Shown here one piece after another: positions 3,801-47,339 of a stretch of 64,000 nucleotides of DNA. The stretch lies in assembly GCA_012343875.1 (NCBI GenBank), contig GCA_012343875.1_3924.1. The stretch is one strand, 5' to 3'. A program made the position numbers and the translations under genes. The notes below the pieces were generated by a model. The model worked only from the letters and a program-made list of their open reading frames with translations, did no database searches and was not told the origin of the DNA. Each line of letters opens with the position of its first letter. The stretch's first letter is position 1. This DNA comes from a phage.

Positions 3801-4028
3801 TTATAGTTCAGTTTCTCGTAATTCTTTGCCTTCATCATAGAAGCATTTATAGAATGTATCTATAGAAATTCTGGCAAAGGTAAGGTCTTCAAAGTATTCT
3901 TCTGGAGTTATCCCTGTAAAACTAAAGCTATCGAGATTGTAAAATGGTATCACTGTGTCGTTACTAACGAAAACACATGCTGATGTCACTTCTCCAGTAT
4001 CTTTATCGATTACCTCTAGAGCCTTCAT
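3801..4028 (-). CDS. hypothetical protein (75 aa)
   Basis: Co-directional ORF, acidic. Confidence 0.4.
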   Translation of the reverse strand: MKALEVIDKDTGEVTSACVFVSNDTVIPFYNLDSFSFTGITPEEYFEDLTFARISIDTFYKCFYDEGKELRETEL

Positions 4029-4601: not shown

Positions 4602-4867
4602 TGCTGATTATTCCCTAATAAAATCATGTCAATAAGGTTATTAGCTTTAATTGTACACTGGTAAAAGCCGTCACGGTAGAACTCAAGTGCTGCTGCTACA
4701 TCACTGCCTGTGTTGCCTTTGATGATATACCGTGATTCTTCTTGAGTGTACTTATCGCTCTCACTTACTTGGGAGTTTTTGAATGTACTGTTCACTTTGT
4801 TCGTTGAACACCCTGACATAGTTATCAGTAACACAAACATTATAAAACTCTGGCTTAGTTTTTTCAT
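4598..4867 (-). CDS. lipoprotein, candidate outer-membrane spanin (o-spanin)
   Basis: Signal peptide with lipobox LLITMSGC; reading frame overlaps the 3' part of the upstream TM+coiled-coil gene (Rz/Rz1-like arrangement). Confidence 0.45.
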   Translation of the reverse strand: MKKLSQSFIMFVLLITMSGCSTNKVNSTFKNSQVSESDKYTQEESRYIIKGNTGSDVAAALEFYRDGFYQCTIKANNLIDMILLGNNQQ

Positions 4868-5108
4868 ATGTTAATACCTCTTTTGTATGCTTATTCTTAG
4901 CAAGCACATCTTTCAAATCATTTTTGTAATTGGTGCTCAGTGTGGCTAAACCTTCCTGATAAGCGTCTTTAGCAACACTTATTAGTTTCTCATTGCTTAA
5001 CTCAGCTTCAGCAACTTGGTAGTCTCTGTAAGAGTATCCTCCCCAGACACCTGCCCCAACTAAGAAAACAATTATGAAAGTAGCTTGACAGAACTCTTTA
5101 AATGTCAT
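4761..5108 (-). CDS. membrane-anchored coiled-coil protein, candidate inner-membrane spanin (i-spanin)
   Basis: N-terminal TM FIIVFLVGAGVWGG followed by a charged helical region; 3' end overlapped by the lipoprotein ORF in another frame. Confidence 0.4.
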   Translation of the reverse strand: MTFKEFCQATFIIVFLVGAGVWGGYSYRDYQVAEAELSNEKLISVAKDAYQEGLATLSTNYKNDLKDVLAKNKHTKEVLTYEKTKPEFYNVCVTDNYVRVFNEQSEQYIQKLPSK

Positions 5109-5124
5109 TTAACAATCTCCTGAA

Positions 5125-5148
5125 ATGAAAAAGGCTCCCGAAGGAGCC
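5125..5148 (-). terminator. intrinsic terminator-like hairpin GGCTCC-UUCG-GGAGCC followed by a U-tract
   Basis: Minus strand: GGCTCCTTCGGGAGCC TTTTTC; one of three near-identical copies. Confidence 0.55.
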
Positions 5149-5151
5149 TGT

Positions 5152-5180
5152 ATATTATTCTTGACTGTAATAGTTGACAA
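5152..5180 (-). promoter_or_regulatory. sigma70-like promoter abutting the hairpin (TTGTCA - 17 nt - TAATAT)
   Basis: -35 at 5175-5180 and -10 at 5152-5157 on the minus strand; -10 ends 4 nt before the hairpin. Confidence 0.4.
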
Positions 5181-5967
5181 GTGAAATAACTTGATTCATC
5201 AACAACTTATCAGCCTGTGCTCCGCGACCAGCTTGTAATGCTAGTTGGTATGCTTCTGTAACATATTTGTTAGACATACCTTCACAGTAGTCATTGTAGT
5301 CTTCCCAAAAGGAAAATGCAGCATCACCATATAGGCGTAGTGTAATTAACATTGCTGCACGAATCCCAGAAGAATACTTACGTTTTGCGTTTACTACACC
5401 TTTAAGCTGTACTTCAAGAGAATCAATTTGTTCCAGCTCATTTTTAAAGTCATTAAGGTATTTAACTGTTTCAGTGTTAGAGACCTGTTGCACACCGTAG
5501 TATGCAGCAACATACTTAATAGCAGTTGCCCAAGATGCCTTCATCAGTTCTGACTCTGGGTTGAAAGAAATCATCTTCATATTTCCGTAATAAACTTCTG
5601 AAGGTTTTTCTCTTGCTAACTCAGAGTCAAAATGAGTGTACAAATCTGTGACATCCAGTATGGAGTTCACATGGTATATAACTGCAATCAAGCTTTCTGG
5701 TCGTGTCAGGTTACCAACTTTCCACGCCTCTCGACGTGAGTGACCATCAATGATGAACAGTGAACTACCGAACTTAGCCACATGGACTACTGTTTGGTCT
5801 GGTGATACATCACCATTAAGGTGTTTGCTTTTCAGACGCTTAAGTGTATTCCGTTGACGAGGGTTTTCTTTGTAACGTTTTTCATTAAGAAAATCCTCGA
5901 CACTGATAATCTTAGTGTGAATTTTAACAACCTTGCCATTCAGTGCTACATTGATGCTGTTTGCCAT
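5155..5967 (-). CDS. ParB/Srx-fold (DGQHR-like) domain protein
   Basis: Motif IIDGHSRREAW resembles the ParB/sulfiredoxin/DndB DGQHR-type signature; lies next to Dam. Confidence 0.35.
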   Translation of the reverse strand: MANSINVALNGKVVKIHTKIISVEDFLNEKRYKENPRQRNTLKRLKSKHLNGDVSPDQTVVHVAKFGSSLFIIDGHSRREAWKVGNLTRPESLIAVIYHVNSILDVTDLYTHFDSELAREKPSEVYYGNMKMISFNPESELMKASWATAIKYVAAYYGVQQVSNTETVKYLNDFKNELEQIDSLEVQLKGVVNAKRKYSSGIRAAMLITLRLYGDAAFSFWEDYNDYCEGMSNKYVTEAYQLALQAGRGAQADKLLMNQVISLVNYYSQE

Positions 5968-5978
5968 AACTTGATACC

Positions 5979-6863
5979 TTAGTTGTGAATGATTACTTCG
6001 TTAATACCTTTGCTTCTCTGTGCATGTATTGTGTATGAATGGCTAACCTCTGTCAAGTTAAAATTTTCAGGAATTAAGCTTGTCCATCCATCCCACTGAG
6101 AGTTTGACATCAAAACTTTAGAACCTAACTCCCCCCAAGAAACCATATCTTCGCATAATTTTACAGACATCTCAATGTCAAACTTTGCACCATATTTCTG
6201 GTTGGTGTTGATATACGGGGGGTCACAGTAAATAACTGTGCCTTCTCCATGTTTTATGTCAACCATGTCATAAGGTTCACTGCTAAGTATTACCCTTTCA
6301 TCGGTGATAAAACTGTAGAACTCTGATAGTGATTCTTTAGTTTTTGTGAAGAAAACCTCTTCTTCCAGCAAATACCCACAAGGTGTTGCATAGTGGCCTT
6401 TCATCTCTTTAGTAGTCTGCCATACACCACCAAAACTTAATTTTTGAAGGAAAAACTGTCTGGCATAGTATCTGTAGTCATATGCTCCTTCTTCACCAAG
6501 CAAAAGAAGTTCTTCTCTTATACTGTAATACATTTTATAGCGTAGGCGGTTATGACGCTGACCTTTCACGGCATACTCTTCCTGCATAGGTAAGGCTAAG
6601 TACCTCTTTGACAAGTACTCAAATTCTTCCATAAAGTTTTCATAGTCATCTCTGAAAGTTGTGTAAAGACCTATAATATGTTTATTTATCTCATTAATAA
6701 ACACTTTTGCCTCTGGGTATCTGTTATAAGCCCAGATAGCTACTGAACCACCACCTGAAAACAGGTCATAGAAGTTTTTACAGTTGTCTGGGAAGACACC
6801 TAAACGCTCATACTCTTTTAATATTCTTGTTTTACCACCAAGATATTTGAACATCGGCTTCAT
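5979..6863 (-). CDS. dam: DNA adenine (N6) methyltransferase, Dam-like
   Basis: FSGGGS (SAM-binding motif I) and YCDPPY (DPPY catalytic motif). Confidence 0.8.
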   Translation of the reverse strand: MKPMFKYLGGKTRILKEYERLGVFPDNCKNFYDLFSGGGSVAIWAYNRYPEAKVFINEINKHIIGLYTTFRDDYENFMEEFEYLSKRYLALPMQEEYAVKGQRHNRLRYKMYYSIREELLLLGEEGAYDYRYYARQFFLQKLSFGGVWQTTKEMKGHYATPCGYLLEEEVFFTKTKESLSEFYSFITDERVILSSEPYDMVDIKHGEGTVIYCDPPYINTNQKYGAKFDIEMSVKLCEDMVSWGELGSKVLMSNSQWDGWTSLIPENFNLTEVSHSYTIHAQRSKGINEVIIHN

Positions 6864-6879
6864 TAATACTCCTTGAAAT

Positions 6880-6902
6880 TTAAAAAGGCTCCCGAAGGAG
6901 CC
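6880..6902 (-). terminator. intrinsic terminator-like hairpin GGCTCC-UUCG-GGAGCC + U-tract
   Basis: Minus strand: GGCTCCTTCGGGAGCC TTTTTAAATTT, 15 nt upstream of the Dam start codon. Confidence 0.55.
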
Positions 6903-6905
6903 TGT

Positions 6906-6934
6906 ATCTTAACCTTAACCGAGGACTTTTGCAA
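6906..6934 (-). promoter_or_regulatory. sigma70-like promoter abutting the hairpin (TTGCAA - 17 nt - TAAGAT)
   Basis: -35 at 6929-6934, -10 at 6906-6911 on the minus strand. Confidence 0.35.
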
Positions 6935-7394
6935 GGATATTTGCAGCCATCGAAGAAGCTTTTGCAGCAGCAACTACGCCAGCTTTGACAGTGCTATCCT
7001 TAATAGCAGATACCGTTGCAGCATCAGTAAAGAGATAAGTGATTGTTTTAGAACCACTTGTAAAGGAAAGCATAAGAGTAGTTTCCAGATTGAAAGAGCG
7101 ATACGGAGCACCTTCTTTAACGATACCTTCGGCACCTAACTCTGAAGCCTTACCCATATCATAGATAGTCATCAGGTTTTCTTTGTGTGCAGTCGTTGAA
7201 CCAGCACCTTTTACGTGCTTTTTAACATTCAACAATGCACGGTATTCACGAATACTGCCATCAGCTTTTACATTAACAGCACGAAAAATTTTACCTTCAA
7301 AGTTACCTTGAATCATTTTACGAACTACTTCAGATTTGTTTGCCGTATCGTCCAGTGCTACCGTAATGATATTGTTCATAAGTTTTTCTCTCAA
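6915..7394 (-). CDS. hypothetical protein (159 aa)
   Basis: Co-directional ORF, Ala/Lys-rich C-terminus. Confidence 0.4.
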   Translation of the reverse strand: MREKLMNNIITVALDDTANKSEVVRKMIQGNFEGKIFRAVNVKADGSIREYRALLNVKKHVKGAGSTTAHKENLMTIYDMGKASELGAEGIVKEGAPYRSFNLETTLMLSFTSGSKTITYLFTDAATVSAIKDSTVKAGVVAAAKASSMAANILAKVLG

Positions 7395-8086
7395 TGTTTA
7401 ACTAGCATGGTTTTAATGTGTGGAAGGATTCTGTTTACCTTCTGAACGTTCTTCTCTGTATCTTCTATAAAGCATACTATATTAAAGTAAGGCAGAATGC
7501 AAGACTGAATCATCCTCACTTTCAAACTTTCTGCACTTAGAGAGTTAGTTCCAAAACCACGCATAAAAAGTATGTAATCATGCTCTATATTGTGCCTCAA
7601 GAACATCTCAGTAGGTATTCTCTGAGTTTCACCTCTTGCTGTCAAGAGTCCGATGGCAGCATGATTAGCAATTGCATCAATAATACTAAAAACATACGTT
7701 GGTTTTGCTCTTACAGAGTCAAGGAGATTAGTATACTGTGAGAATGACCCATCAGTCAATTCCGTTGAGCAATCTTCGTGATTAAAATTTGTAAGAACAC
7801 CATCAATATCTGCTAAGATGAGGTTACCTTTTTCTACAAGGTCTTTATTGACTATGACTAAACTGTCACGTCTTACACCTATAGACTTCCCAGTCTCTTT
7901 GTCCACAACGTTCACAATTGGTTCTGATGTGTGAAACTCTTCAAGTGAACATACAACTTCTCTTGCAGTGTCTTCAAAATCCCTGCACTGTTCTGGAGTC
8001 CATACACAGGAATCAAGACCTAACTCATGAGGGTGCAAGTCGTAAGCGTGGCACAGGACTTCATCAGACTTTCTTAATTTTTTCAT
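7391..8086 (-). CDS. HAD-superfamily hydrolase-like protein (possible nucleotidase/phosphatase)
   Basis: ILADIDGVLTN resembles HAD motif I (DxDGV); IGLLTARGE and IEDTEKN fit downstream HAD motifs. Confidence 0.4.
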   Translation of the reverse strand: MKKLRKSDEVLCHAYDLHPHELGLDSCVWTPEQCRDFEDTAREVVCSLEEFHTSEPIVNVVDKETGKSIGVRRDSLVIVNKDLVEKGNLILADIDGVLTNFNHEDCSTELTDGSFSQYTNLLDSVRAKPTYVFSIIDAIANHAAIGLLTARGETQRIPTEMFLRHNIEHDYILFMRGFGTNSLSAESLKVRMIQSCILPYFNIVCFIEDTEKNVQKVNRILPHIKTMLVKH

Positions 8087-8612
8087 GATTTACCTTAGAA
8101 ATGTTTGTTGCAAATTCACATTGAGCAATAACTTTCATATTGTTATAGACATCTTGAGAGTATTTCTTAGCTTTAGGGATTTTGTACGAATACCCAGCAT
8201 TATACGATGCTAAAACTTTTTGTAAAGTCTTCTTTGACTTCGGGTGACCATGTACCTTAGTCCAAAACTCAAGCTCTTTATGCGTCTCTTTTGCTGCATA
8301 GTCAAAATCTTTTAAGAGTTTCTTTTTAGCCACATTAGGACTAATTTTGTTACGCTTTACAACAGTCTTCAAGTGATTCTGGAAAATACCATAGTCGTGG
8401 GTCTTTTTATTCTCTACCTTCAGACCTAACTCTGACTCTTGTAAGGCTATAGCTGCTAGAGTAATACCCCAGCCTTTCCCCATATTATTCTCACCATACT
8501 GGTAAGCTTTTAACATGTTTACTTTTTGGCTAATTGATAGCTCTGGGCAGTCAACTGCATAAGATAAGTGTGCTGTAAACATTAAGCACAAGCCTAGAAT
8601 CAATTTCTTCAT
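8064..8612 (-). CDS. secreted lytic transglycosylase (SLT-domain), candidate endolysin
   Basis: N-terminal signal peptide MKKLILGLCLMFTAHLSYA; catalytic signature LQESELG .. YGIFQ. Confidence 0.55.
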   Translation of the reverse strand: MKKLILGLCLMFTAHLSYAVDCPELSISQKVNMLKAYQYGENNMGKGWGITLAAIALQESELGLKVENKKTHDYGIFQNHLKTVVKRNKISPNVAKKKLLKDFDYAAKETHKELEFWTKVHGHPKSKKTLQKVLASYNAGYSYKIPKAKKYSQDVYNNMKVIAQCEFATNISKVNHEKIKKV

Positions 8613-8671
8613 TGGTTCTCCTGTTTAGTTTATTGTGACAACAATTATACAGCACTCTGCACAAAATACAA

Positions 8672-8699
8672 ATAAAAAAGGCCGCCGAAGCAGCCTTTT
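8672..8699 (-). terminator. terminator-like hairpin with flanking A/T runs
   Basis: AAAAAAGGCCGCCGAAGCAGCCTTTT, downstream of the rIIB-like gene. Confidence 0.45.
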
Positions 8700-8712
8700 A
8701 AGAAATTACTTA

Positions 8713-9822
8713 TTAGATTTCGCGTTTGCGTTGAGAGATGAGTTCCCCAGCAGTACCAACGATGACATGCAGAGCTTCAGTCTTGCCATCCCACGCTTTC
8801 AGTACTTTACGTTGATTATCAACGATTGCTGCAACTTCATAACGGGATGAACGCATCTTCATATCATTGTAATCAGTCGGAACAGATACAACATCTCGTG
8901 GATGGACACGAACCTTCAGGATTGTATCACCTGAGAAGCAACGAACATAATCCCAAGCACCAACGTGAAGACCTTGAGAGCAAGTCACGTTACGGTTATT
9001 ATCAACCATCCAACGTGGCATTTCTACAATGTTACCCAAATCATTAGGTACTCTGTAGGTGTGGGAGTCAACCAGCTTGCCTTCACGAGTAGATACTTTC
9101 TTCCAACCAATGATGTAACCTTCTTCATCAATTTCAACATCAAGGTGAGATACGAAGCCCCAAAGTTGTTCTACAGAGTCTTTAGATGGGTTTTCCATCA
9201 GTTTTTCGAAGAACATTACAAGTCGTTCAAAGCCTTTATCACCAGTCTTCATCATGTGAAGAATACGGTCAACCAGAGTAGAACGCATCTCAACAGCACC
9301 GTAGAATAGCTTATCACCTTTGATTGTGATAGCACCCTGAGTGAAGTTTTCGATAGACTTACGAATGTTCATCAGTTCAAAGGCTTTCTTGAACTCACCT
9401 TTCACAACATGAACTACAATCTCTTGATAGTTCGGATGAGTAGACTCAACAATTTCAGATTCTGAACCGTAAGTCATAATTACAGAGTCACCAGTAATCA
9501 TGTACTCAATCTTGTCATCTTTCTGCATAGCTTCATGTAGTTTATTTACCGGAGCTTTCTGTACAGACTCTTTAACAGCCTTTTCAACTGGTTTGCCAGC
9601 TTTCTTTTTAAAAGTCTTAGCAACTTGTTTCAAAGTCTTCGTAGCTGGTGTAGAAGTCGCCTTCTTATTACCTTTTAAGGTTGCTTCATGACGCTCTACA
9701 GCACGACCAACTGAACGGGTTGAAGTATTGAACTTCTGTGCAATAGCTGTTTTAGTCAGCTTACCTTCTTTAACCAGTTTGTAAATTTCTGCGTCAATCT
9801 GTGCTTTAGTTTTAGTAGTCAT
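8713..9822 (-). CDS. rIIB: rIIB-like protein
   Basis: Segments RSTLVDRIL and VHPRDVVSVPTDYNDMKMR match conserved blocks I recall from T4 rIIB; sits immediately downstream of rIIA-like gene. Confidence 0.65.
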   Translation of the reverse strand: MTTKTKAQIDAEIYKLVKEGKLTKTAIAQKFNTSTRSVGRAVERHEATLKGNKKATSTPATKTLKQVAKTFKKKAGKPVEKAVKESVQKAPVNKLHEAMQKDDKIEYMITGDSVIMTYGSESEIVESTHPNYQEIVVHVVKGEFKKAFELMNIRKSIENFTQGAITIKGDKLFYGAVEMRSTLVDRILHMMKTGDKGFERLVMFFEKLMENPSKDSVEQLWGFVSHLDVEIDEEGYIIGWKKVSTREGKLVDSHTYRVPNDLGNIVEMPRWMVDNNRNVTCSQGLHVGAWDYVRCFSGDTILKVRVHPRDVVSVPTDYNDMKMRSSRYEVAAIVDNQRKVLKAWDGKTEALHVIVGTAGELISQRKREI

Positions 9823-9901
9823 CTTAATACTCTCTCTTGTTAGTTAATAAATCATTTTGTAAGGCTATTCTAAGGGGCTTTGAAGCCCCTTGTCAAACAC
9901 T

Positions 9902-12268
9902 TTAATCGTAAACTGTTGTACCTTCTGGAACACATTTTACATCAAAGCCTAAGAACTTACTCACTTCGATGGGTGACACTTTATTCCAATCTAAATGAGA
10001 AAGCAAGAAGTTTTCTTGTTTTCTTTTTGAAAGGTAGTTTGTCACCTTAATGACCATGCGGTCACCAGCTTTCTTAATTTTCTTGTACAGTTTTGTATCA
10101 TTGTCAAGGCATTCTTTCAAAGTTTGCAATCTACTAATAGTGTAAGTGTATGCAAACGGTGCGGCAACGTATTGGATTTTACCAAACATAGCCTCTACAG
10201 CCTCTTCATTACCTTCTAGGAAGATAGTTTTGCTAGTATCTCGTGAATAGCAATAGCCACGAGAAATCTTCCTGTTATTGAATGTAAAGTTTCTGGCAAT
10301 AATCCAACTGCTTGTAAGGTCAAGAACACCATTCATGTAGATGCGTGTCATATACCTGTTATGATTAATCCAATGAACATCAGTTAAGCTGTCGTTCAAG
10401 AGTTTCTCATCTACTTCAATCCAGTCTTCTGGTATCTTTTTCCAATTTGCTTTTCGGAAAACATAGACTGTCTTACCTGTAACATTAGCAACTGACTTAG
10501 CTACATCTTCTGGAGATGAGCAAAAACATTCACCATCAACTGTGTCACCGACTGCCTTAATGTAAAGCTGAGGTTCTTCAATTGTATCAAAGTCCTCTGA
10601 AACCTCTTTATAGGAAGCTACACCTTCTGCTGGAACAGCTTTCCAGAGTTTTACAACACCCCTTACAGCTTCTTTACGCTGGTAATGGTGTTCCTTATCA
10701 GACATCTTCACAATCTTTAACAAGCTTTTATCAAGTTTGTGCAGATTGATTAAGTCATCTAGCTCTTTCTCTGTAGAGAATACAAAGACAATACCATTGT
10801 ATCTGTGAAACAGATTTGACTCACTGGCGTAGTCTCGACATGCACCACGCAAAATTTGATTGCGTCCTACAGTCTTCTCAGTACCGTTTTTATTGCGACG
10901 GTCATTAATCACGAACAAAAACTGTTCAATTTGGCTTTTACGCATTGCACCAAAGATATTGAACATACTTGCCTCTTGAGTGTAGGAAAGTGCTGTTGCA
11001 CGAATCTTACTCTCTAAAGAGTTGAACTTGACATAAGCAACTGGGTCATAAAGATAATCTACTTTAGGGATATTGTTCCCGTTCCTATCAACCTTAATAT
11101 TGCCTTTACCGTCACGTTCATAAATGACTGAGCCGTCTTCTGCGTAGATAATTCCACGACGAATGTTTAACAATTCTTCTTCCAGAGAATCAAGCTTAAC
11201 GCCTCCCCACTCTAGCTTTGGACACACAGCATTAAACATCTCTCGTGAGTTCAAACGTAACTCTGCATAAGCCTGTGCAGCATCCATGAGTGTAGGTTGG
11301 CTATTAACTTTCTTGATAACATCCTTTGTAATTGCTTCAGTTATCTTTTTGGTAGCCTCGATGATAACATTTTTTGTCGTATCATTCATCTGCAATGCTT
11401 CACGAGAAGCTGCTATAGCAACTGAACCAATAGGCATGTAGATGTTTACAAGGTCTACGCTCCTACGGAAAAACTCTGGCAAGACTTTGAAGAAATCATC
11501 ACCAAGTAATGCTTCCATGTTCACTGGATAGGCAATATTACCCATCACCACATTAAACTCTGTCCTGTTACCACTAGAACGCCAGCTTTGCTTATGAATC
11601 ATGGCATCATAAACACCTTCTTCACGGGCAATGACGTTCATATCTGCTAATACATCGTCGTACTCAATATTACTTTCTGGTTTTACAGTGAAGTATGAGT
11701 ACACATTTCCAGCTTCTTCAAAGAACTTTGAGATACGGTGGTCAGCAACTGCCACACGTACAGCTAAACCATTTGGTTCTTTTGTTGGGTTAGTGGTCAG
11801 ATTAGTTACTTGAGGGATACCATTCTCAAGATAAACAGAGTACTTATTAACAACACCACCAACATAGCTAGATACTGTGAATGACTGAGCAATTGCAAAT
11901 GGGGATTTTGAGCCGATACCCATTGCACCAATGTAGTCATTAGAGTCATTCTTCGTAGAAGCCCCGTAGTTTAGGTACAAAGTCATAACTTTATCATGAG
12001 TCAATCCAGTTCCAAAATCACGAACTTCAAAGTAAGGCTCAAAACGAGTAGGTAAATGCACATGGAACGGGATGTTCTCTTTTCCAGCTTCTTTCTGAGC
12101 ATCTACTGCGTTACATGACAGTTCACGAATCACTGCCCTTTCTTTAAAGGTATATACACCAGAACTCAAAAGGCTGAACATCTCAGGTGTCATTGTAATC
12201 TGTGCTTGAGACGTCTCTAAAGAAGTTGAACTCTTAATCACTTCTGCGTGGTCATTTACCATGCGCAT
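9902..12268 (-). CDS. rIIA: rIIA-like protein (GHKL/Bergerat-fold ATPase N-terminal domain)
   Basis: AVIRELSCNAVDAQ and GAMGIGSKSPFA match the histidine-kinase-like ATPase motifs of T4 rIIA as I recall them. Confidence 0.7.
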   Translation of the reverse strand: MRMVNDHAEVIKSSTSLETSQAQITMTPEMFSLLSSGVYTFKERAVIRELSCNAVDAQKEAGKENIPFHVHLPTRFEPYFEVRDFGTGLTHDKVMTLYLNYGASTKNDSNDYIGAMGIGSKSPFAIAQSFTVSSYVGGVVNKYSVYLENGIPQVTNLTTNPTKEPNGLAVRVAVADHRISKFFEEAGNVYSYFTVKPESNIEYDDVLADMNVIAREEGVYDAMIHKQSWRSSGNRTEFNVVMGNIAYPVNMEALLGDDFFKVLPEFFRRSVDLVNIYMPIGSVAIAASREALQMNDTTKNVIIEATKKITEAITKDVIKKVNSQPTLMDAAQAYAELRLNSREMFNAVCPKLEWGGVKLDSLEEELLNIRRGIIYAEDGSVIYERDGKGNIKVDRNGNNIPKVDYLYDPVAYVKFNSLESKIRATALSYTQEASMFNIFGAMRKSQIEQFLFVINDRRNKNGTEKTVGRNQILRGACRDYASESNLFHRYNGIVFVFSTEKELDDLINLHKLDKSLLKIVKMSDKEHHYQRKEAVRGVVKLWKAVPAEGVASYKEVSEDFDTIEEPQLYIKAVGDTVDGECFCSSPEDVAKSVANVTGKTVYVFRKANWKKIPEDWIEVDEKLLNDSLTDVHWINHNRYMTRIYMNGVLDLTSSWIIARNFTFNNRKISRGYCYSRDTSKTIFLEGNEEAVEAMFGKIQYVAAPFAYTYTISRLQTLKECLDNDTKLYKKIKKAGDRMVIKVTNYLSKRKQENFLLSHLDWNKVSPIEVSKFLGFDVKCVPEGTTVYD

Positions 12269-12296
12269 AATACTTTCCTCTTAGTTTACTGTTAAA

Positions 12297-12473
12297 TTAC
12301 TTATTAAACATTTTACCAGAACCACCACACATAGGGCAACAACCTGCTCTTGTATACCCTTCTCCATTACAGTAGTCACACTTCTTGTGTTCTGCAAAGT
12401 ACTTACAAAGAAGGTAAACAAGTACTGCTACACTACCAAGTGACAGTAAAATTTCTACCCAATATGCTTGCAT
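12297..12473 (-). CDS. small membrane Cys-rich protein (58 aa), not in ORF track
   Basis: ATG at 12473-12471 with GAGGTG RBS; product MQAYWVEILLSLGSVAVLVYLLCKYFAEHKKCDYCNGEGYTRAGCCPMCGGSGKMFNK (TM helix + CxxC..CCPMCGG). Confidence 0.35.
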   Translation of the reverse strand: MQAYWVEILLSLGSVAVLVYLLCKYFAEHKKCDYCNGEGYTRAGCCPMCGGSGKMFNK

Positions 12474-12790
12474 GACTCACCTCTCATGTTTTTGTAAAGG
12501 ATAAAGCTTCTGTCATGGACGATACTTGTAGATACTGCAAAGTTACTTTCAAGCATCTGTTTGTTTGGATTGTAGAAGCTTTCTTTAAACTCGTCAAGTG
12601 CAAATTGGTGATTGTCTGGAAGACCTTTTACACACACCTTTATTGTGATTGCTGCTGCAATCTTCCCAGTCAGTTCTTCTTTAGCTGCTACTAAGATTTT
12701 GTTGAGGAACTTATGACCATTTTCAGGCTTCTTGATGTTCTCCCAACGCTCTTCTAAGACAATGTTGATGTTCATCTCTTTGATTTTCAT
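12455..12790 (-). CDS. hypothetical protein (111 aa)
   Basis: Co-directional ORF directly downstream of the promoter-hairpin-RBS element at 12806-12860. Confidence 0.4.
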   Translation of the reverse strand: MKIKEMNINIVLEERWENIKKPENGHKFLNKILVAAKEELTGKIAAAITIKVCVKGLPDNHQFALDEFKESFYNPNKQMLESNFAVSTSIVHDRSFILYKNMRGESCKHIG

Positions 12791-12805
12791 AATTTTCTCC
12801 AGAAA

Positions 12806-12828
12806 TTAAAAAGGCTCCCGTAGGAGCC
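12806..12828 (-). terminator. intrinsic terminator-like hairpin GGCTCC-UACG-GGAGCC + U-tract
   Basis: Minus strand: GGCTCCTACGGGAGCC TTTTTAATTT, downstream of the NAMPT-like gene. Confidence 0.55.
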
Positions 12829-12832
12829 TATT

Positions 12833-12860
12833 ATCATATACTTTTAAAGCTGCTTGTCAA
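12833..12860 (-). promoter_or_regulatory. sigma70-like promoter abutting the hairpin (TTGACA - 16 nt - TATGAT)
   Basis: -35 at 12855-12860, -10 at 12833-12838 on the minus strand. Confidence 0.4.
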
Positions 12861-14625
12861 TATTATTTCGAATATCGCCAAGAGTTGTGTAGCCGAACTG
12901 CTCAGAGTCGCTAAAGACTAAACGTAAAGCACAAGCTGGATGCTCAAGTGCATCTGCAAAACTCTGGAATCCATAGCCATCTACAGCTTTCAGATTCTCA
13001 CCATCCCACATAGGGGCTACACCACCAAAAGCAGACTTCTTAATACCACTATCTGTTTTAGGGTCTTTTGCAAGCATAATCTCTTTACCACCAATGCTTG
13101 CAAGAGTTGCTTTGACAGCAAATGCAAAGGTGTCACGAGTCATGTACTGGTAAGTGTAAGAACCTACACCAAACACTACGTTAGAGCTTGCAAAACCCAT
13201 TTCATACAAACGCTTCAGGATTTCGTTTGCACGTTCCAGCGTGATAGAGTCACCATAGATAAGGCCAATGTGCTCATCCAGTACCTTAAACCCTTTAGAG
13301 TTGATAGTTCCTCCAAAGATGTTATACAAGGTCTTAATGGCCCCATCAATCTCTGCTACAGGACGTGTTACAACGTTTGCAGAACCAACCATATAGGCGT
13401 TTTTCAACATCACTGTATCAGCAACTTCAAAGTCTTCTCTGTCAACAACCATTTCGTAGCCTTCTGACAGTAGCCATCCAGCAATACCATAGTTGATGTT
13501 TTCAAGCTTCATGTTCAGAACAGCATTCAACATTGTGTCACTGGCTTCCAGCTTGATTAGGTGCTCGTAATAAGCCTTCTTAGCACATTCTAAGTGGATT
13601 GCTTTATAACCTGTGACAATATGTACAGGGTCTCCAGAGTCAGGACGAATTACCAGTTTGCCATCACGTTCCATAATTTCTTTACGAAGTGCTGGTAAGA
13701 TTTCTGACACAGTTCTCCAGAAGTTATAAGTGTCTGAAACAACACTTGCAATACCAGTTGGGTAAGTTTCTGTTAAGAAACGACGGAAGGTTTGTAACTC
13801 ACCTTTAAAGCGTCTTTCTTCTTCAATCAACTCATTACCACCTTCCCAAGCAATGTTTGCACACATTACAGAGTGCTCAGTGGCTGGTACAGAACTACCA
13901 ATATCAGAAATTGGGTAAGACTGTCCATAGATGCGTTTAGCCGTGTATACAGCAGGGAAACTATCAGTTCCTTTAAAGCTGGTTAAGTGACCTACAGCAT
14001 TAAATGCGTCATCGGTAAAGCCGGACATACCACGCATAGCAAAGTCATGGCACTGATAAGGTAAATGTAAGTCGTTGTCGCAAGTAAGGTCAGCCCACTT
14101 CTTACAGATGCGTTTATAATGCAATGCAATAGTTGCAATGGTACAAGCCTTCCAAATCTCAGCAGAGAAAGCATCTTCCAGATACCCTGCTACCCAATGG
14201 AAACCTGAAACAGTGTTCTGGAAGACAATCATTGGGACACGCATAGGGACAACTGTACCTTCTTCTACAGCGTATACTTCAACTGGTAGATAACCTAAGT
14301 CATGAAGTGCTTCCCAATGCTCTCGACCGATAGCATCTTTACCCAGAACACCATTCATGACTTCTAAGATTTCATCAATGGCTTCTTTTTTATCACGTTC
14401 AAAGAAAGTGGCGTTCCAGTGGTCTATCAAGTAATCTTTAACGAAACGTTGAATACCAAAAGCTACTACACCATCAATTACTAAGGGGCTGTTAAACCAT
14501 TTGTCACTACGTGGTGTCAGGTTGAACATCAAGTACTCTGTTGCACTAGGGTACTGGTAAACATGACCAGATTTGTAAGCATCTGCGTTTAAACCTGCTG
14601 GTACTGCATAAAGTGATTTAGTCAT
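12844..14625 (-). CDS. nicotinamide phosphoribosyltransferase family protein (NadV/NAMPT-like; candidate nicotinamide ADP-ribose transferase)
   Basis: N-terminal DAYKSGHVYQYP .. YLMFNLTPRS matches the NAMPT-family signature as I recall it; 593 aa is longer than a typical NadV. Confidence 0.8.
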   Translation of the reverse strand: MTKSLYAVPAGLNADAYKSGHVYQYPSATEYLMFNLTPRSDKWFNSPLVIDGVVAFGIQRFVKDYLIDHWNATFFERDKKEAIDEILEVMNGVLGKDAIGREHWEALHDLGYLPVEVYAVEEGTVVPMRVPMIVFQNTVSGFHWVAGYLEDAFSAEIWKACTIATIALHYKRICKKWADLTCDNDLHLPYQCHDFAMRGMSGFTDDAFNAVGHLTSFKGTDSFPAVYTAKRIYGQSYPISDIGSSVPATEHSVMCANIAWEGGNELIEEERRFKGELQTFRRFLTETYPTGIASVVSDTYNFWRTVSEILPALRKEIMERDGKLVIRPDSGDPVHIVTGYKAIHLECAKKAYYEHLIKLEASDTMLNAVLNMKLENINYGIAGWLLSEGYEMVVDREDFEVADTVMLKNAYMVGSANVVTRPVAEIDGAIKTLYNIFGGTINSKGFKVLDEHIGLIYGDSITLERANEILKRLYEMGFASSNVVFGVGSYTYQYMTRDTFAFAVKATLASIGGKEIMLAKDPKTDSGIKKSAFGGVAPMWDGENLKAVDGYGFQSFADALEHPACALRLVFSDSEQFGYTTLGDIRNNIDKQL

Positions 14626-16362: not shown

Positions 16363-16388
16363 ATAAAAAGGGAACCTTTACAGTTCCC
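16363..16388 (-). terminator. intrinsic terminator-like hairpin GGGAAC..GTTCCC + U-tract
   Basis: Minus strand: GGGAACTGTAAAGGTTCCC TTTTTATTTT. Confidence 0.5.
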
Positions 16389-16401
16389 CTATAGTATCTG
16401 T

Positions 16402-16722
16402 TTACTGAGCTACTTTCAAGAGGCTTGTGAATGGAATCTCACTCTCATCCATAAGCTCTTTTGCTTTTCCAGTAACTTTTACAAAGTTATCTAGGCAGAT
16501 AATCTTCTTATCTTTCTTGCTGTAGGTCAGTTTCACCTTTTCAATATCTTTCTTAGAGCTTTCCTCTTCATTAAAGAGCTTCACAGCTTCTTTGAATGGA
16601 AGGTATGAGCCATCATCATCACTAATAAAACCTGTGCCGCAATAGTAGAAGTTATATTCTTTAGCCATAAACTGGCACAGTACGAAAATCTGTAATTTGC
16701 GAGTGTTATAAACTTTGCTCAT
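16402..16722 (-). CDS. hypothetical protein (106 aa)
   Basis: Co-directional ORF. Confidence 0.4.
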   Translation of the reverse strand: MSKVYNTRKLQIFVLCQFMAKEYNFYYCGTGFISDDDGSYLPFKEAVKLFNEEESSKKDIEKVKLTYSKKDKKIICLDNFVKVTGKAKELMDESEIPFTSLLKVAQ

Positions 16723-42885: not shown

Positions 42886-42925
42886 ACAAAAAAGGCTCCT
42901 TTTTACGGGAGCCTTAAAATTTTAT
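42886..42925. terminator. bidirectional intrinsic terminator between convergent blocks
   Basis: AAGGCTCC-tttttacg-GGAGCCTT hairpin flanked by A-run upstream and T-rich run downstream. Confidence 0.6.
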
Positions 42926-43567: not shown

Positions 43568-46117
43568 TTAAGCAGTTCTTACCCAAGCCATTAACTTATA
43601 GAACTGGTTAGTAACACTAAATGCTGAACCAGAACCAGTACCACCTGTGTTACCACTAACTGTGTGGCTGTGAGCACCAATACCAACAGTGTGGCTGTGG
43701 TTACCTGTTGTATTCGTTACACCAGACCAGTTTCTTGATGCGTTGAAGTTGACAGGGATACCATTAGTAAAGTTGTTACCAGTATACCCTTTAGAACCTG
43801 CCTGACTACCGAGGTAGAATGCACCACTTGCTGTGTAGAAGCTACTAGCGTCACTTCTGAAGTAACCAAATGAACCAGTAATCTCCATAGTACCTCTGTT
43901 GTGGTTGTGGTTACCAGTTGTGCTAGAAGTCTTAGTACCATAGTCAAATGATGAAGTAGTAGCAGAGAAGCTGTGCGTGTGTGAAGGTAAGTTACCAACA
44001 GACAACGTTACAGAGTCTGAACCACCAGTTGTAGCAACATCTGAACCGTTTGCTGCTGCAATTCTAATAGTTCTACCAACACCATTATTCAGGTACGTCC
44101 AAGTTAACCCAGGAAGTGCTGTGTTTGGGTTGACATTACTGTTAAACCACGTCACAATACCTACTGGATAGATTTTATTCAGGTCTGTAGAGTCACTAAT
44201 TGCTTCTGCAATCTTCTGGTCAGTTTCTGCTTTAGTGTATGCACCAATATCTGAAGGGGTTGGTTTTTGCAAACTTGTGTAGTATTTTGCAATTGTACCC
44301 TTCACAATACCTTGTGGAGCATCATCAAATGTCTGTGGGACTTCAAACAACTGTACACTTGCATTACTAGAAGACTGAACCCTTGTCGTTGTGCTGTTTT
44401 GATACGTACCAGCAAGATAGTAAATATCATAGGTGTCTCCAGAAGTATTCACATAACCAATATCCCTGATAATGGTGTTCTCTGATGTTCTCCAAGCAAC
44501 AACATTTAAGCCCTTTGGATTGTTATTTGAAGTTCGCAGAACAATTTCACATTTACCTGCTTGGTTTGGTGTATTAATATTAAAACCTGACCCACCAAAT
44601 ACCTCAATAACAGCAGTGGATGCTGATTGTGGCATCACAACAGTGGCAATTTTAGCCCACTTATCAGTGTTTCCCACATTGAAGCTAGTGCTTCTGATTC
44701 TTAGGTATCTACTATCACTAGCACTTTGCGTAAAGTATCTAGCATCTAAGTTAGAGAAATCTGAAGGTTGAACTTGTCCAGCAATAGTCAATGTTTTGTT
44801 AATGTATGATGTTGTATTCCCGAGAACCAATTGGGTTCCAGAATAACTGTTATTTAGGGTTACATCATTATTATCTGCCCCACCAACACCTACCCACCAC
44901 CTTGACACATTAGCAGTGTCCACACCACGGATATACAATGGTCTGTTCTGAGTAGAGTTTTTCACAATTAGGGCTTCATTATCCGTAACAACTTTCTGTA
45001 CACCATTAAAAGTATTTTGTGCATTAGTTCTTGCAATCGTACTTAATGTTGCTGCCGGAATATATCTAGAGTCAATATTAGTCCAATCCGAAGGTTGAAC
45101 TTGACCAGTGATTCTGAAGTTCTGGTTGACTGAGATATAGCCATTATCAAGCCTGATATTTGAACCGTGTACATAGTTGTGTAGCAGCACAGAGGCTGTG
45201 TTATCCCCGTTCCCTACATACCACCTGTTAGTGTTCTGAGAGTCAACACCCTGAATGAATAGTGAGCTAGCTGTTGCATTTTTCAACCTTAAAGCAGCAC
45301 TGTCACTAATGATGGTTAGATTTCTACTAAACGTGTTAGTGCCCGTGAAATTATTATTAGCAGCTAACTGTGCAAATCTCTGATTAGCAACTGTCTGAGT
45401 GAAGTATCTAGCATCTAAGTTAGAGAAATCTGAAGGTTGAACTTGACCAGTGATTGCTAAAGACTTATTAACAGAGACATTACTTGCAACAGTCAAGGCT
45501 GAGTTGTATTTGTTATTGTACAGCTTTACTTCATCAGAGCCATTACTACCAATACCAACCCACCATCTAGCCGAACCATCTAGGTTTACACCTTCGATGT
45601 ATTGTGCATTATTTGCATTTTGGTTTCTAAGGCGAAGTAAGTTAGCATCACCTTGAATATTTTGAGTTCCAGAGAATGTGTTTGTGATAGCAAGTCTTGC
45701 ATATCTTGCGTCATTCTCTTCATTAGTTCTCATACCAAGCTCATTAGGACTTGGCTTATTCAGAGTATGATAAACAGTTGCTGACCTTGAAGCATCTGCA
45801 ATAGTTAGTTTAAGACCATTTGCATTAAGTTTAAAAGTCTTTAAAACATCCCCAATAGTAATTTCAGAAGAACCTGTAGGGTCAAATACTGCCTTACCAC
45901 CATAAAGTAACTTGACAATACCTAAATCCCCAGTCATATTACTTCCAGCAATCTGAACAAACCTTTCTAGTTTGAAGGAAGCTAAGAAGTCTTGATAGGT
46001 CATTCTGCGGTCTTCATCACCCAACATTTCAGGTCTTTTCTTAACTCTGATGTGCAATAGGTCTTCTGAACGAATTGTGTCGATTGAGTTTAATTGACTC
46101 AATTTGTAATCTGCCAT
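43568..46117 (-). CDS. long tail fibre protein with internal repeats and His-rich C-terminal tip
   Basis: Three copies of the ITGQVQPSDFSNLDARYFTQ block; C-terminal HTHSFS / GNHNHN / GNHSHTVGIGAHSHTV HxH repeats. Confidence 0.7.
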   Translation of the reverse strand: MADYKLSQLNSIDTIRSEDLLHIRVKKRPEMLGDEDRRMTYQDFLASFKLERFVQIAGSNMTGDLGIVKLLYGGKAVFDPTGSSEITIGDVLKTFKLNANGLKLTIADASRSATVYHTLNKPSPNELGMRTNEENDARYARLAITNTFSGTQNIQGDANLLRLRNQNANNAQYIEGVNLDGSARWWVGIGSNGSDEVKLYNNKYNSALTVASNVSVNKSLAITGQVQPSDFSNLDARYFTQTVANQRFAQLAANNNFTGTNTFSRNLTIISDSAALRLKNATASSLFIQGVDSQNTNRWYVGNGDNTASVLLHNYVHGSNIRLDNGYISVNQNFRITGQVQPSDWTNIDSRYIPAATLSTIARTNAQNTFNGVQKVVTDNEALIVKNSTQNRPLYIRGVDTANVSRWWVGVGGADNNDVTLNNSYSGTQLVLGNTTSYINKTLTIAGQVQPSDFSNLDARYFTQSASDSRYLRIRSTSFNVGNTDKWAKIATVVMPQSASTAVIEVFGGSGFNINTPNQAGKCEIVLRTSNNNPKGLNVVAWRTSENTIIRDIGYVNTSGDTYDIYYLAGTYQNSTTTRVQSSSNASVQLFEVPQTFDDAPQGIVKGTIAKYYTSLQKPTPSDIGAYTKAETDQKIAEAISDSTDLNKIYPVGIVTWFNSNVNPNTALPGLTWTYLNNGVGRTIRIAAANGSDVATTGGSDSVTLSVGNLPSHTHSFSATTSSFDYGTKTSSTTGNHNHNRGTMEITGSFGYFRSDASSFYTASGAFYLGSQAGSKGYTGNNFTNGIPVNFNASRNWSGVTNTTGNHSHTVGIGAHSHTVSGNTGGTGSGSAFSVTNQFYKLMAWVRTA

Positions 46118-46163: not shown

Positions 46164-47339
46164 TTAAGCTGTTCTCTGCCACACATACACTACAAAAGAT
46201 GGCTGCTCAACACTGAAAGCTTGACCACCACCAACAGAACCAGATGTCCCTGAGTGTGTATGCTCAGAGCTAGAAACAGTAACAGTGCCTGTATGACTGT
46301 GCGAACCAATATTAACAGTGTGGCTGTGAGCACCAATTGCGACAGTATGGCTATGAGCACCAGATGATGCAGTTGTACCTGAGAAGCTATGGGTGTGAGC
46401 ACCAGCTAAATCAGTATACATAGCATTACCAACACCAGCATCAGCAGATGCAGTAATAGCGTTTGTGCCACCCCTATCATTACCCCTCATAGGAACTCTA
46501 TGGTTGTGGTTACCAGCATTACTTGTTGTGCCACTAAACGTGTGAGTGTGAGCACCAGCACTATTAGTCGTTTTTGTACCGTAATCAAAAGTTGATGTAC
46601 TTTTTGAACCATAATCAAAACTAGAGATAGATACACTTGCAGAGTGTGTATGACCACCACCTGTTAGATAGATAGAGTGAGTATGTGCTGGTAAATTATT
46701 ATTTGTTAATGCTACAGTCTGAGAACCAAACGTTGAACCAACAGGTCTGGAATCTGTATCATAACCAACTAGTGCTCTACCTTTAGAAACTAACTCCCAA
46801 GTACCTCCACAAAGCAAGTAAGTGGATGGGTTAGCAGAGTTAACAGATAGATGAATAGTACCCACTGGATATGATGCTTGGATAGCTTTGTATAGATTAT
46901 TCACTGCTCTCGCTGTAGCATACTTATCAGCATCTTCATTGTACAGATTGGATGTTGTCCAGTTCTGAACATTACTTAAACCGACCTGTGCTTTCGTTGT
47001 GTTATGTGGGTTACTTTTGTCGTCAATATGTTGCTGAATTAAGTTATTCACTTCCTCTGACGACATAATTTGTAGATTTGCTCTTGCCTCAGCAACATTT
47101 ACAATGTCTGACAAGTTATTAGCTGCAACTAATTGAAGAGAGTTAATAACATTATCAAGACCTACTTGCGATTTCGTTACACCATGAGGGTTATTCCTCA
47201 AAGATGCGTGAGGTGCTAACAACTGTTCAAGCGTACATCTTTTATCCTCAACACCTTGCTTAAGATGGAAGATATCACTCAAATCAATTGGTAAGGCCGC
47301 TTGTGGCAAGGCACTAATTTGAATTTCACCTACTGCCAT
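46164..47339 (-). CDS. tail fibre protein with His-rich HxH repeats
   Basis: GGGHTHSASV, GAHTHTFSGT, GNHNHRV, GAHSHTVAIGAHSHTVNIGSHSHTG; C-terminus similar to the 849-aa fibre (..W.RTA). Confidence 0.65.
   Translation of the reverse strand: MAVGEIQISALPQAALPIDLSDIFHLKQGVEDKRCTLEQLLAPHASLRNNPHGVTKSQVGLDNVINSLQLVAANNLSDIVNVAEARANLQIMSSEEVNNLIQQHIDDKSNPHNTTKAQVGLSNVQNWTTSNLYNEDADKYATARAVNNLYKAIQASYPVGTIHLSVNSANPSTYLLCGGTWELVSKGRALVGYDTDSRPVGSTFGSQTVALTNNNLPAHTHSIYLTGGGHTHSASVSISSFDYGSKSTSTFDYGTKTTNSAGAHTHTFSGTTSNAGNHNHRVPMRGNDRGGTNAITASADAGVGNAMYTDLAGAHTHSFSGTTASSGAHSHTVAIGAHSHTVNIGSHSHTGTVTVSSSEHTHSGTSGSVGGGQAFSVEQPSFVVYVWQRTA

Follow-up and report, generated by a model that had tools for sequence, protein, structure and literature searches.

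Three minus-strand elements in the early-gene region of the phage contig GCA_012343875.1_3924.1 (assembly GCA_012343875.1; 64,000 nucleotides, hereafter the window) each carry promoter-like hexamers directly ahead of a hairpin, a U-tract and the start of the next gene. From a comparison of their sequences with those of related phages, we lean towards the view that they are compact "stop and restart" signals, in which a terminator is overlapped by a sigma70 promoter and the hairpin also serves as a patch of homology at the borders of gene modules. The hairpin (a G+C-rich stem of 6-7 bp, a C(UUCG)G or C(UACG)G loop and five U) would act as a terminator, probably a leaky one, for incoming RNA polymerase. 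A host sigma70 promoter would be laid over its 5' side, with the -35 hexamer in the last codons of the upstream gene and the -10 hexamer between stop codon and stem, ending 2-4 nt ahead of the first paired base.

The core GGCTCCCGAAGGAGCC occurs exactly at positions 5133-5148 and 6887-6902 and, with one mismatch in the loop (TACG on the coding strand), at 12813-12828; shuffled sequences gave 0.01 matches for the three found in the window. These matches confirm the three sites that the first-pass annotation had placed upstream of the start codons at 5108, 6863 and 12790, and minus-strand open reading frames (ORFs) begin exactly there. The elements, numbered copies 1 to 3 in this order, share one layout on the minus strand: -35/-10-like hexamers, 3-4 nt, GGCTCC-UNCG-GGAGCC, U5, GGAG and ATG. 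The hexamers are those quoted originally, namely TTGTCA-17-TAATAT, TTGCAA-17-TAAGAT and TTGACA-16-TATGAT. The spacing of 4 nt between the -10 hexamer and GGCTCC, however, holds for copy 3 only, since copies 1 and 2 have 3 nt each. Similarly, the near-identity of the elements applies to copies 1 and 2, which have a perfect 26-bp core and are 86% identical over 43 nt, but not to copy 3, with 65% identity over those 43 nt. The upstream stop codons fall in the spacer or in the -10 hexamer; the -10 hexamer of copy 1 includes the stop codon of the 270-aa ORF, and the 16-nt spacer of copy 3 holds that of nadV. In all three copies, GGAG lies 5-8 nt ahead of the ATG. The stretches 5' of the -35 hexamers (aaataata, atttatc and aaatatcc) are A+T-rich, yet they are coding sequence in a genome of 61% A+T. 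Coordinates are given in Table 1.

Table 1. Composite elements, hairpins and genes of the window (t numbers are those of the Felix O1 terminators)
Feature	Position	Strand	Description
Rz-like spanin	4761-5108	-	last gene of the region in transcription order, behind copy 1
Copy 1 composite	5106..5180	-	accessory-module end, before Rz-like spanin; -35-like TTGTCA 5180-5175; -10-like TAATAT 5157-5152; hairpin 5149-5132, U-tract; GGAG 5120-5117; ATG 5108-5106 (Rz-like spanin)
26-bp perfect direct repeat, right-hand copy	5128..5153		AAAAAGGCTCCCGAAGGAGCCTGTAT on the plus strand
Hairpin 1	5132..5149	-	A-GGCTCC-UUCG-GGAGCC-U
Accessory two-gene module	5155..6863	-	between the 26-bp repeats
270-aa protein, function unassigned	5155-5967	-	phrog_2615
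D12-class N6-adenine DNA methyltransferase (Dam)	5979-6863	-	Pfam PF02086, E = 2e-23
Copy 2 composite	6861..6934	-	resident t5 site after ORF5 homologue; -35-like TTGCAA 6934-6929; -10-like TAAGAT 6911-6906; hairpin 6903-6886, U-tract; GGAG 6872-6869; ATG 6863-6861 (Dam)
26-bp perfect direct repeat, left-hand copy	6882..6907		
Hairpin 2	6886..6903	-	A-GGCTCC-UUCG-GGAGCC-U; -13 kcal/mol
ORF5 homologue	6915-7394	-	after polynucleotide kinase
182-aa ORF, then polynucleotide kinase	after rIIB	-	
Terminator after rIIB (t2)	8676..8699	-	GGCUGC-UUCG-GCGGCC
rIIA, then rIIB	after the two small ORFs	-	
Two small ORFs	between nadV and rIIA	-	
Copy 3 composite	12788..12860	-	after nadV; -35 TTGACA 12860-12855; -10 TATGAT 12838-12833; gap AAT; hairpin 12829-12812, U-tract; GGAG 12800-12797; ATG 12790-12788
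Hairpin 3	12812..12829	-	A-GGCTCC-UACG-GGAGCC-U, then UUUUAAUUU; -13.8 kcal/mol, z -4.7
nadV	12844-14625	-	first gene of the region in transcription order
Composite with a different hairpin (t124)	16368..16419	-	TTGAAA-17-TACTAT abuts the stem; 9/12, gap 0-2
t124 hairpin	within 16368..16419	-	AGGGGAAC-UGUAA-GGUUCCCUU, then U-tract, GGAGG, ATG
t79/t80 equivalent	42892..42915	both (terminator-like)	GGCTCC/GGAGCC stem, 8-nt loop

All three hairpins consist of a 7-bp stem with five G-C pairs and a 4-nt loop, followed by UUUU(U)nAUUU. Their folding energies of -13 to -13.8 kcal/mol (z about -4.6) are well below those of shuffled controls. They are intergenic, oriented with the genes, and begin 5-14 nt past the stop codons of the ORFs at 5155-5967, 6915-7394 and 12844-14625. 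Judged by sequence and predicted folding, the three hairpins are canonical rho-independent terminators, and the first-pass picture of a terminator-type hairpin with U-tract, followed by a ribosome-binding site and ATG, fits stem, loop, folding energy and position. That such hairpins are terminators is already known from Felix O1 and from annotated relatives. The Felix O1 genome paper lists ggctccttcgggagcc as the rho-independent terminators t5 and t35 and the same GGCTCC/GGAGCC stem with a longer loop as t79/t80 (Whichard et al., 2010, Table 2; PMC3185647). It left open whether transcription passes the numerous terminators of this phage by read-through or with the help of secondary promoters. 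The GenBank records of KhF3 and Mordin annotate orthologous hairpins as terminators, that of Mordin at copy 3. The 20-nt hairpin string is a generic motif that recurs in over 120 viral contigs of diverse origin, and an Rfam scan of the whole window returned no family at gathering score.

Promoter likeness was scored as the number of matches to the 12 hexamer positions, which gives 9/12, 8/12 and 11/12 for copies 1, 2 and 3, respectively. As background on the minus strand, evaluated per 5-nt window, a score of at least 8 was reached at 3.4% of positions, at least 9 at 1% and at least 11 at 0.04%. Copy 3 is one of only five minus-strand sites in 64 kb with at least 11/12. Six of the 14 terminators in the window score at least 8 with a -10 hexamer located 0-6 nt upstream of the stem, and the adjacency of promoter-like hexamers to hairpins exceeds chance. 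The arrangement recurs in relatives. In Felix O1, t35, located after the endolysin gene, reads TTGACA-17-TATCTT-cat-AGGCTCC, with the same hairpin after a 3-nt gap (10/12), and at t29, TTGACC-17-TATGAT abuts a different hairpin (10/12). In phage Tf, AAGACA-17-TACAAT, read by eye, stands just upstream of the hairpin at the end of rIIB. Altogether, the hexamers occur at the same offset of 0-4 nt at six independent hairpin sites of Felix O1-like genomes. As a control, we collected 125 distinct upstream contexts of this hairpin from IMG/VR, about 95 of which, by our own count, lie outside the Ounavirinae. Among the latter, one scores at least 9 and four score at least 8; all higher scores belong to Ounavirinae sites. 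The idea that the hexamers are a universal companion of this hairpin is ruled out by these approximately 95 unrelated viral contexts, which lack them.

We then compared the sites across genera. At the nadV site (copy 3), the promoter stretch came in 11 distinct versions (24 distinct longer sequences), some of them from diverged lineages such as Mooglevirus and Suspvirus. In these, the -35 hexamer TTGACA is invariant and the -10 hexamer is TATGAT or TATTAT, while 10 of the 16 spacer columns vary. At the t5 site, which corresponds to copy 2, seven distinct promoter stretches (19 distinct longer sequences) have a -35 hexamer of the form TTGC[A/T/G]A and a -10 hexamer that is TAAGAT, TATTAT, TATGAT, TAATAT or TACTAT, that is, always TAnnAT. 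The -10 hexamer of the t35 site is TATCTT or TAGATT. Across genera, all changes in the -10 hexamers are confined to positions 3 and 4. Taking the TTG of the -35 and T1, A2 and T6 of the -10 hexamer as key positions, none of 18 varied at the three orthologous sites, compared with 31 of the 79 remaining positions between the -35 hexamer and the stem (one-sided Fisher test, p = 4e-4), with the caveat that the sites compared had been picked because their reference sequence resembled a promoter. These patterns suggest that the overlapping promoter is probably functional at copy 3, at copy 2/t5 and at t35 and t29 of Felix O1. For copy 1, the situation is different. REP7, SP116 and Tf have TAATAC as its -10 hexamer, and the diverged lineage L203 has TAGTAC, which makes four of the six carrier genomes read; the promoter at copy 1 is therefore doubtful and not maintained. 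Thus, the overlapping sigma70-like promoter that the first-pass annotation had proposed for all three elements finds support at copies 2 and 3, where the hexamers are conserved across genera, but not at copy 1.

The position of the -10 hexamers has a consequence for the transcripts. Promoters of E. coli initiate approximately 7 nt past the -10 hexamer, within a range of 6-9 nt. At this distance lie C-U-C-C of the 5' arm in copies 1 and 2 and G-C-U-C in copy 3 and t35. Because only 2-4 nt separate the -10 hexamers from the stem, transcription is expected to start within the 5' arm, and the local transcript would be devoid of the full terminator. RNAs starting at the second G, the C or the U of the arm are predicted to fold with -8.3/-9.2, -4.5/-5.4 and -2.3/-3.2 kcal/mol, respectively, versus -13/-13.8 kcal/mol for the full hairpin. 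They keep 3-5 stem pairs and lose those next to the U-tract. Incoming transcripts would meet a complete terminator, whereas locally initiated ones, with part of the 5' arm gone, would not, and would run through the U-tract and the ribosome-binding site into the next gene. The full 5'-terminal stem-loop envisaged originally is geometrically unlikely, as the start is expected inside the 5' arm.

The same geometry bears on a second explanation, in which the hairpin acts on its own transcripts. With a start at or before the first G of the stem, it would protect the mRNA from decay that depends on the 5' end, or it would terminate most transcripts after about 20-25 nt and so serve as a conditional attenuator or yield a small RNA. 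Stabilisation of mRNA by a 5'-terminal stem-loop is established in E. coli, with ompA as the example that Emory, Bouvet and Belasco reportedly described in 1992. In copy 3 and t35, the G residues of the stem are the sole purines in the preferred start range, and a start at the second G keeps five pairs and -9.2 kcal/mol. Terminators right behind promoters, with two modes of read-through, are moreover a frequent feature of the transcriptomes of Pseudomonas phages (Putzeys et al., 2024; PMC10914365). However, a complete 7-bp hairpin at the 5' end needs an abnormally short distance of 3-5 nt between the -10 hexamer and the start, and a normal start leaves only 3-4 bp in copies 1 and 2 (-2.3 to -4.5 kcal/mol). 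No antiterminator or other regulator is implicated, none having been looked for. We therefore regard this explanation as improbable in general, while copy 3 and t35, in which a hairpin of 5 bp might persist, may have a promoter-proximal attenuator.

A simpler explanation is that the hairpins are plain, leaky intrinsic terminators, that the downstream genes are expressed by read-through and that stop codons and A+T-rich gene ends give rise to the hexamers as by-products without function. Read-through is one of the options left by the Felix O1 paper (PMC3185647), the U-tract comprises only five U, and the hairpin stands alone as a terminator motif in many unrelated viral contigs. Several observations weigh against stop and restart signals and partly in favour of this explanation. 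The scores of copies 1 and 2 are modest, about half of the terminators in the window are devoid of promoter-like hexamers, and in the more distant Erwinia phage phiEa21-4 such hexamers accompany only one of the three equivalent hairpins. The -35 hexamers lie in coding sequence, and their conservation may in part be due to the encoded protein. In four of the six carriers, the -10 hexamer of copy 1 has lost its critical final T without loss of the phage; with this promoter lost, the spanin operon must depend on read-through, and a restart is dispensable there. The absence of a conserved promoter ahead of the spanin genes is also our argument for regarding the five-U terminators as leaky. As to the start site, positions 6-10 past the -10 hexamer are all pyrimidines in copies 1 and 2, which is a poor initiation context, and the 5-bp hairpin of about -9 kcal/mol left in copy 3 and t35 by a start at the second G might itself terminate. 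Finally, the literature yielded no transcriptome, transcription start site or Term-seq data for Felix O1-like phages. On the other hand, mere by-products would hardly share an offset of 0-4 nt at six independent sites, keep the key positions invariant across genera while their neighbours vary, or be almost never found in about 95 control contexts, and copy 3 is close to consensus. Plain terminators are thus an unlikely, though not far-fetched, explanation. The description of the elements as modular insulator cassettes suits copy 3 well and copy 2 fairly, but copy 1 poorly.

The relation between copies 1 and 2 became clear from the comparison with phages that lack the genes in between. The two copies contain a perfect direct repeat of 26 bp, spaced 1,754 bp from start to start, which encloses the genes for the Dam methyltransferase and the 270-aa protein. 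In most relatives, homology on the spanin side breaks off directly ahead of hairpin 1. Only one hairpin, t5, is present in Felix O1 and KhF3; its upstream flank is that of copy 2 and its downstream flank that of copy 1. Compared with these phages, the window thus has 1,754 additional bp, with the 26-bp repeat at both borders. The three elements therefore cannot count as independent modules, since copies 1 and 2 mark the ends of one insert whose empty site has one hairpin. The full module was found in 14 of 254 matching phage records and in part in one more, ESCO56, which has the methylase and a remnant of the 270-aa gene (together about 6% of the sequenced Felixounaviruses). Carriers include REP7, SP116 and tootiki. 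It is absent from Felix O1, KhF3, Mordin, SUSP1 and Sf19, and Mooglevirus and Suspvirus relatives show the single-hairpin arrangement. Some phages without the module, for instance MET-P1-301, resemble the window no less closely than carriers do. In a metagenomic Ounavirinae lineage with only approximately 78-84% DNA identity, the module occupies the same locus and has diverged to the same degree as the backbone, and the G+C content of the module (0.38) is close to that of the backbone (0.39). A tblastn search for a donor outside the Ounavirinae in 50,697 phage records returned matches of less than 31% identity only, from Synechococcus and Rhizobium phages, and thus gave no evidence of a transfer from elsewhere; phages of these two groups have distant relatives of the 270-aa protein.

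Whether the module was gained or repeatedly and precisely lost, the breakpoints, as judged from the aligned sequences, lie inside the repeated hairpin, as recombination on short homology would yield. Copies 1 and 2 are the repeats on the two sides of an optional module, and recombination between them would produce the single hybrid hairpin of most relatives. Conversely, a circular module entering by a single crossover at the hairpin would create the duplicate as observed. In IMG/VR, the module occurs at just two loci, both in Ounavirinae and both at the same position, and none at another hairpin site. The constant locus means that there is no evidence of movement between hairpin sites, which counts against the hairpin as a general border patch.

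A perfect repeat around a module that is present or absent would also be expected of a dedicated mobile or site-specific recombination element, whether a miniature mobile hairpin or a site recognised by a homing enzyme or recombinase, that spreads with its cargo. The homogenised hairpins within genomes and an inverted loop in two metagenomic relatives could be read in the same way. In these two contigs (L014 and L054, IMG/VR metagenome 3300045988), the hairpin of the nadV site has the tetraloop CGUA instead of UACG (CGTA for TACG) with unchanged stem arms, the pattern expected when template switching or recombination within the inverted repeat turns the loop round. Searches with the 270-aa ORF against Pfam, PHROGs and PDB sequences gave nothing informative, and the module is without recognisable nuclease, integrase, transposase or recombinase in these searches. 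Its locus is the same in every carrier, including the lineage of 78-84% identity, three other inserts beside hairpins have no second hairpin, and ordinary homologous recombination on a short homology patch suffices. A dedicated mobile element is consequently very improbable.

Other inserts were found next to hairpins of this type. In Shigella phage Tf, three extra genes after rIIB are framed by two hairpins, the resident GGCTGC-TTCG-GCGGCC and a second one, GGCTAC-TTCG-GTAGCC. In phiEa21-4, gp9-11 are located between the ORF5 homologue and the spanin gene, bracketed by two GGACTC-TTCG-GAGTCC hairpins. Three inserts abut a hairpin on one side only: phage D4 has an ORF of 114 aa behind copy 3, Mordin one of 72 aa, and SUSP2 one of 53 aa behind t5. 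As nearly all intergenic gaps of this region are hairpin spacers, the clustering may partly be due to survivorship bias, which is a further point against a role in module exchange. The GGCTCC hairpin is present four to five times per Felix O1-like genome, and GGACTC-TTCG-GAGTCC occurs three times within 8 kb of phiEa21-4 (3921-3936, 6675-6690 and 7944-7959). The two hairpins differ in three stem pairs, with both arms changed. A hairpin that is uniform within a genome and differs between genera by paired changes in the arms suggests homogenisation within genomes. The proposal that gp9 of phiEa21-4 is a homologue of Felix O1 ORF32, as if a module had moved between slots, was rejected because the BLASTP match was not significant; gp10 and gp11 are tied to Felix O1 ORF31 and ORF30 by the notes of the phiEa21-4 record only.

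A stronger form of the stop and restart model would make each element a self-discriminating terminator of about 60 bp, which stops all incoming transcription and is invisible to its own RNA, and the homogenised hairpin a linker that swaps modules among Ounavirinae. This version we hold as a tentative possibility that we would rather doubt than assert.

The window contains further sites in which hairpins and promoter-like sequences are combined. The t124 element has the composite layout with a different hairpin. The t2 terminator has no overlapping promoter upstream, but a TATAAT about 30 nt downstream. This perfect TATAAT, within 8640-8676 on the minus strand behind t2 and ahead of the 182-aa ORF, represents the classical order of terminator followed by promoter, in contrast to the overlapped layout at the GGCTCC hairpins. 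The t79/t80 equivalent lies between convergent gene blocks, judging from the Felix O1 gene layout (PMC3185647).

Two other groups of sites recall the promoter-early stem-loop (PeSL) cassettes of T4-like myoviruses (Arbiol et al., 2010, PMC2839356; Comeau et al., 2014, PMC4122927). A second composite-repeat family on the minus strand, at 370-520, 735-885, 1438-1588 and 1784-1934, consists of 99-nt units of 86-100% identity ahead of small ORFs. Three of its copies read CTTTACA, a GGGGCTTA...TAAGCCCC hairpin and AGATAAAGAGCTTTACCACTAAATCCTAAAyTGGAGATTCAAAAATG, the hairpin spanning the spacer and a -10-like TAAAGT/TATCTT. The variant at ~885-735 has TTGACA-17-TAAATT, a GGGAAGG/CCTTCCC hairpin and then the same leader. 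With their GGGG..CCCC stems, the members of this family look closer to classical PeSLs than the GGCTCC elements do. The same is true of the rIIA-rIIB spacer, where the near-consensus promoter TTGACA-N18-TAGAAT (9867-9896, minus strand) has an 18-nt spacer that is in its entirety the stem-loop AGGGGCUUCAAAGCCCCU, which is the form of the commonest PeSL subclass. Sites similar to this promoter (gtgTTTGACA-17-TAGAAT) are found at 29154-29126 and 28815-28787.

The 9-kb stretch around the three elements shares 96% identity with Escherichia phage REP7 and found matches in 276 phage records, most of which are from Felixounavirus. By sequence, the window belongs to this genus of the Ounavirinae, the Felix O1-like myoviruses. 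The genes of the 9-kb region are located on the minus strand, in a transcription order that begins at nadV and ends at the Rz-like spanin. Two unannotated GenBank records, MG065664.1 and MG065668.1 ("Campylobacter phage A132/A126", host Campylobacter jejuni), share 95% identity with the window across all 9 kb, Dam module included; their host attribution or naming looks doubtful. Elsewhere in the window, at 43647-43710, 44727-45471 and 46280-46568, direct repeats of 44-76 nt, which are diverged and form several families, fall in a region of probably structural, tail fibre-like genes and have no relation to the hairpin elements.

Two points of this analysis are new: the probable overlapping promoter at conserved sites and the recognition of copies 1 and 2 as the ends of one accessory module. 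The AYO145A record already annotates a promoter at the copy 3 hexamers. A comparative genomics paper on Felixounavirus mentions neither terminators nor the methyltransferase nor indels. The genus is put forward for Salmonella biocontrol (PMC8300805). Conserved host-type promoters laid over several terminators, to which the comparison points, would offer a testable answer to the question, raised in the Felix O1 paper, of how terminators are passed. They also indicate that composite promoter/terminator cassettes, and their tie to optional gene modules, may not be confined to T4-like phages, which bears on the gain and loss of accessory genes such as the Dam methylase. A specialist in phage transcription would find nothing surprising here, and the hairpins themselves are already annotated. 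Should the self-discriminating terminator and the linker prove true, shuffling of the PeSL type would extend beyond T4-like phages and transcription past the Felix O1 terminators would be explained. Once validated, an insulate-and-restart element of about 60 bp would be a handy part for synthetic biology.

Among known systems, the Dam module resembles the phage morons that Juhala, Hendrix and colleagues are said to have described in 2000, accessory genes with their own promoter and terminator between resident genes. The module with Dam and the 270-aa ORF likewise lies between genes that are adjacent in relatives and ends with its own copy of the terminator. Unlike a moron, it borrows the resident promoter/terminator composite on its 5' side instead of having a distinct promoter, its G+C content equals that of the backbone, and it is bounded by a perfect 26-bp repeat.

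The closest match in sequence is with the C(UUCG)G terminators t5, t35 and t79/80 of Felix O1, which are identical and have the same G+C-rich stem, extra-stable UNCG loop and U-tract. In the published list, these are terminators only; the overlapping conserved promoter and a start inside the stem are not described there (PMC3185647). In Pseudomonas phages, promoter-proximal terminators have been reported in the 5' untranslated regions of transcripts (Putzeys et al., 2024; PMC10914365). Like the elements described here, they are located directly downstream of promoter elements in densely coded virulent phage genomes. They lie, however, within the 5' untranslated region and act on their own RNA, whereas the start predicted here falls inside the 5' arm of the hairpin.

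In function and architecture, the nearest parallel is with the PeSLs, in one subclass of which the stem-loop follows directly behind the -10 hexamer (PMC2839356, PMC4122927). Both have an intergenic location with the stop codon, sigma70-type -35 and -10 hexamers, a terminating stem-loop, a Shine-Dalgarno sequence and ATG. In both, the hexamers are spaced by 16-18 nt within the same short motif as the stem-loop, the motif is repeated within the genome in early regions with accessory genes, and copies lie at the borders of indels between close relatives, as seen for the Dam module and the inserts of Tf and phiEa21-4. The literature search yielded no paper connecting PeSLs with Felix O1-like phages. 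The Ounavirinae are not T4-like, the host group is a different one, and there is no sequence relationship: GGCUCC/GGAGCC stems, UNCG loops and an explicit U-tract stand against the GGGG...CCCC stems typical of PeSLs, and a second copy is found at some insert borders only. For PeSLs, promoter and terminator activity and mini-circles were shown experimentally, while the elements described here are known from their sequence. Without claiming homology, we consider it supportable, by analogy, that these elements would work like PeSLs.

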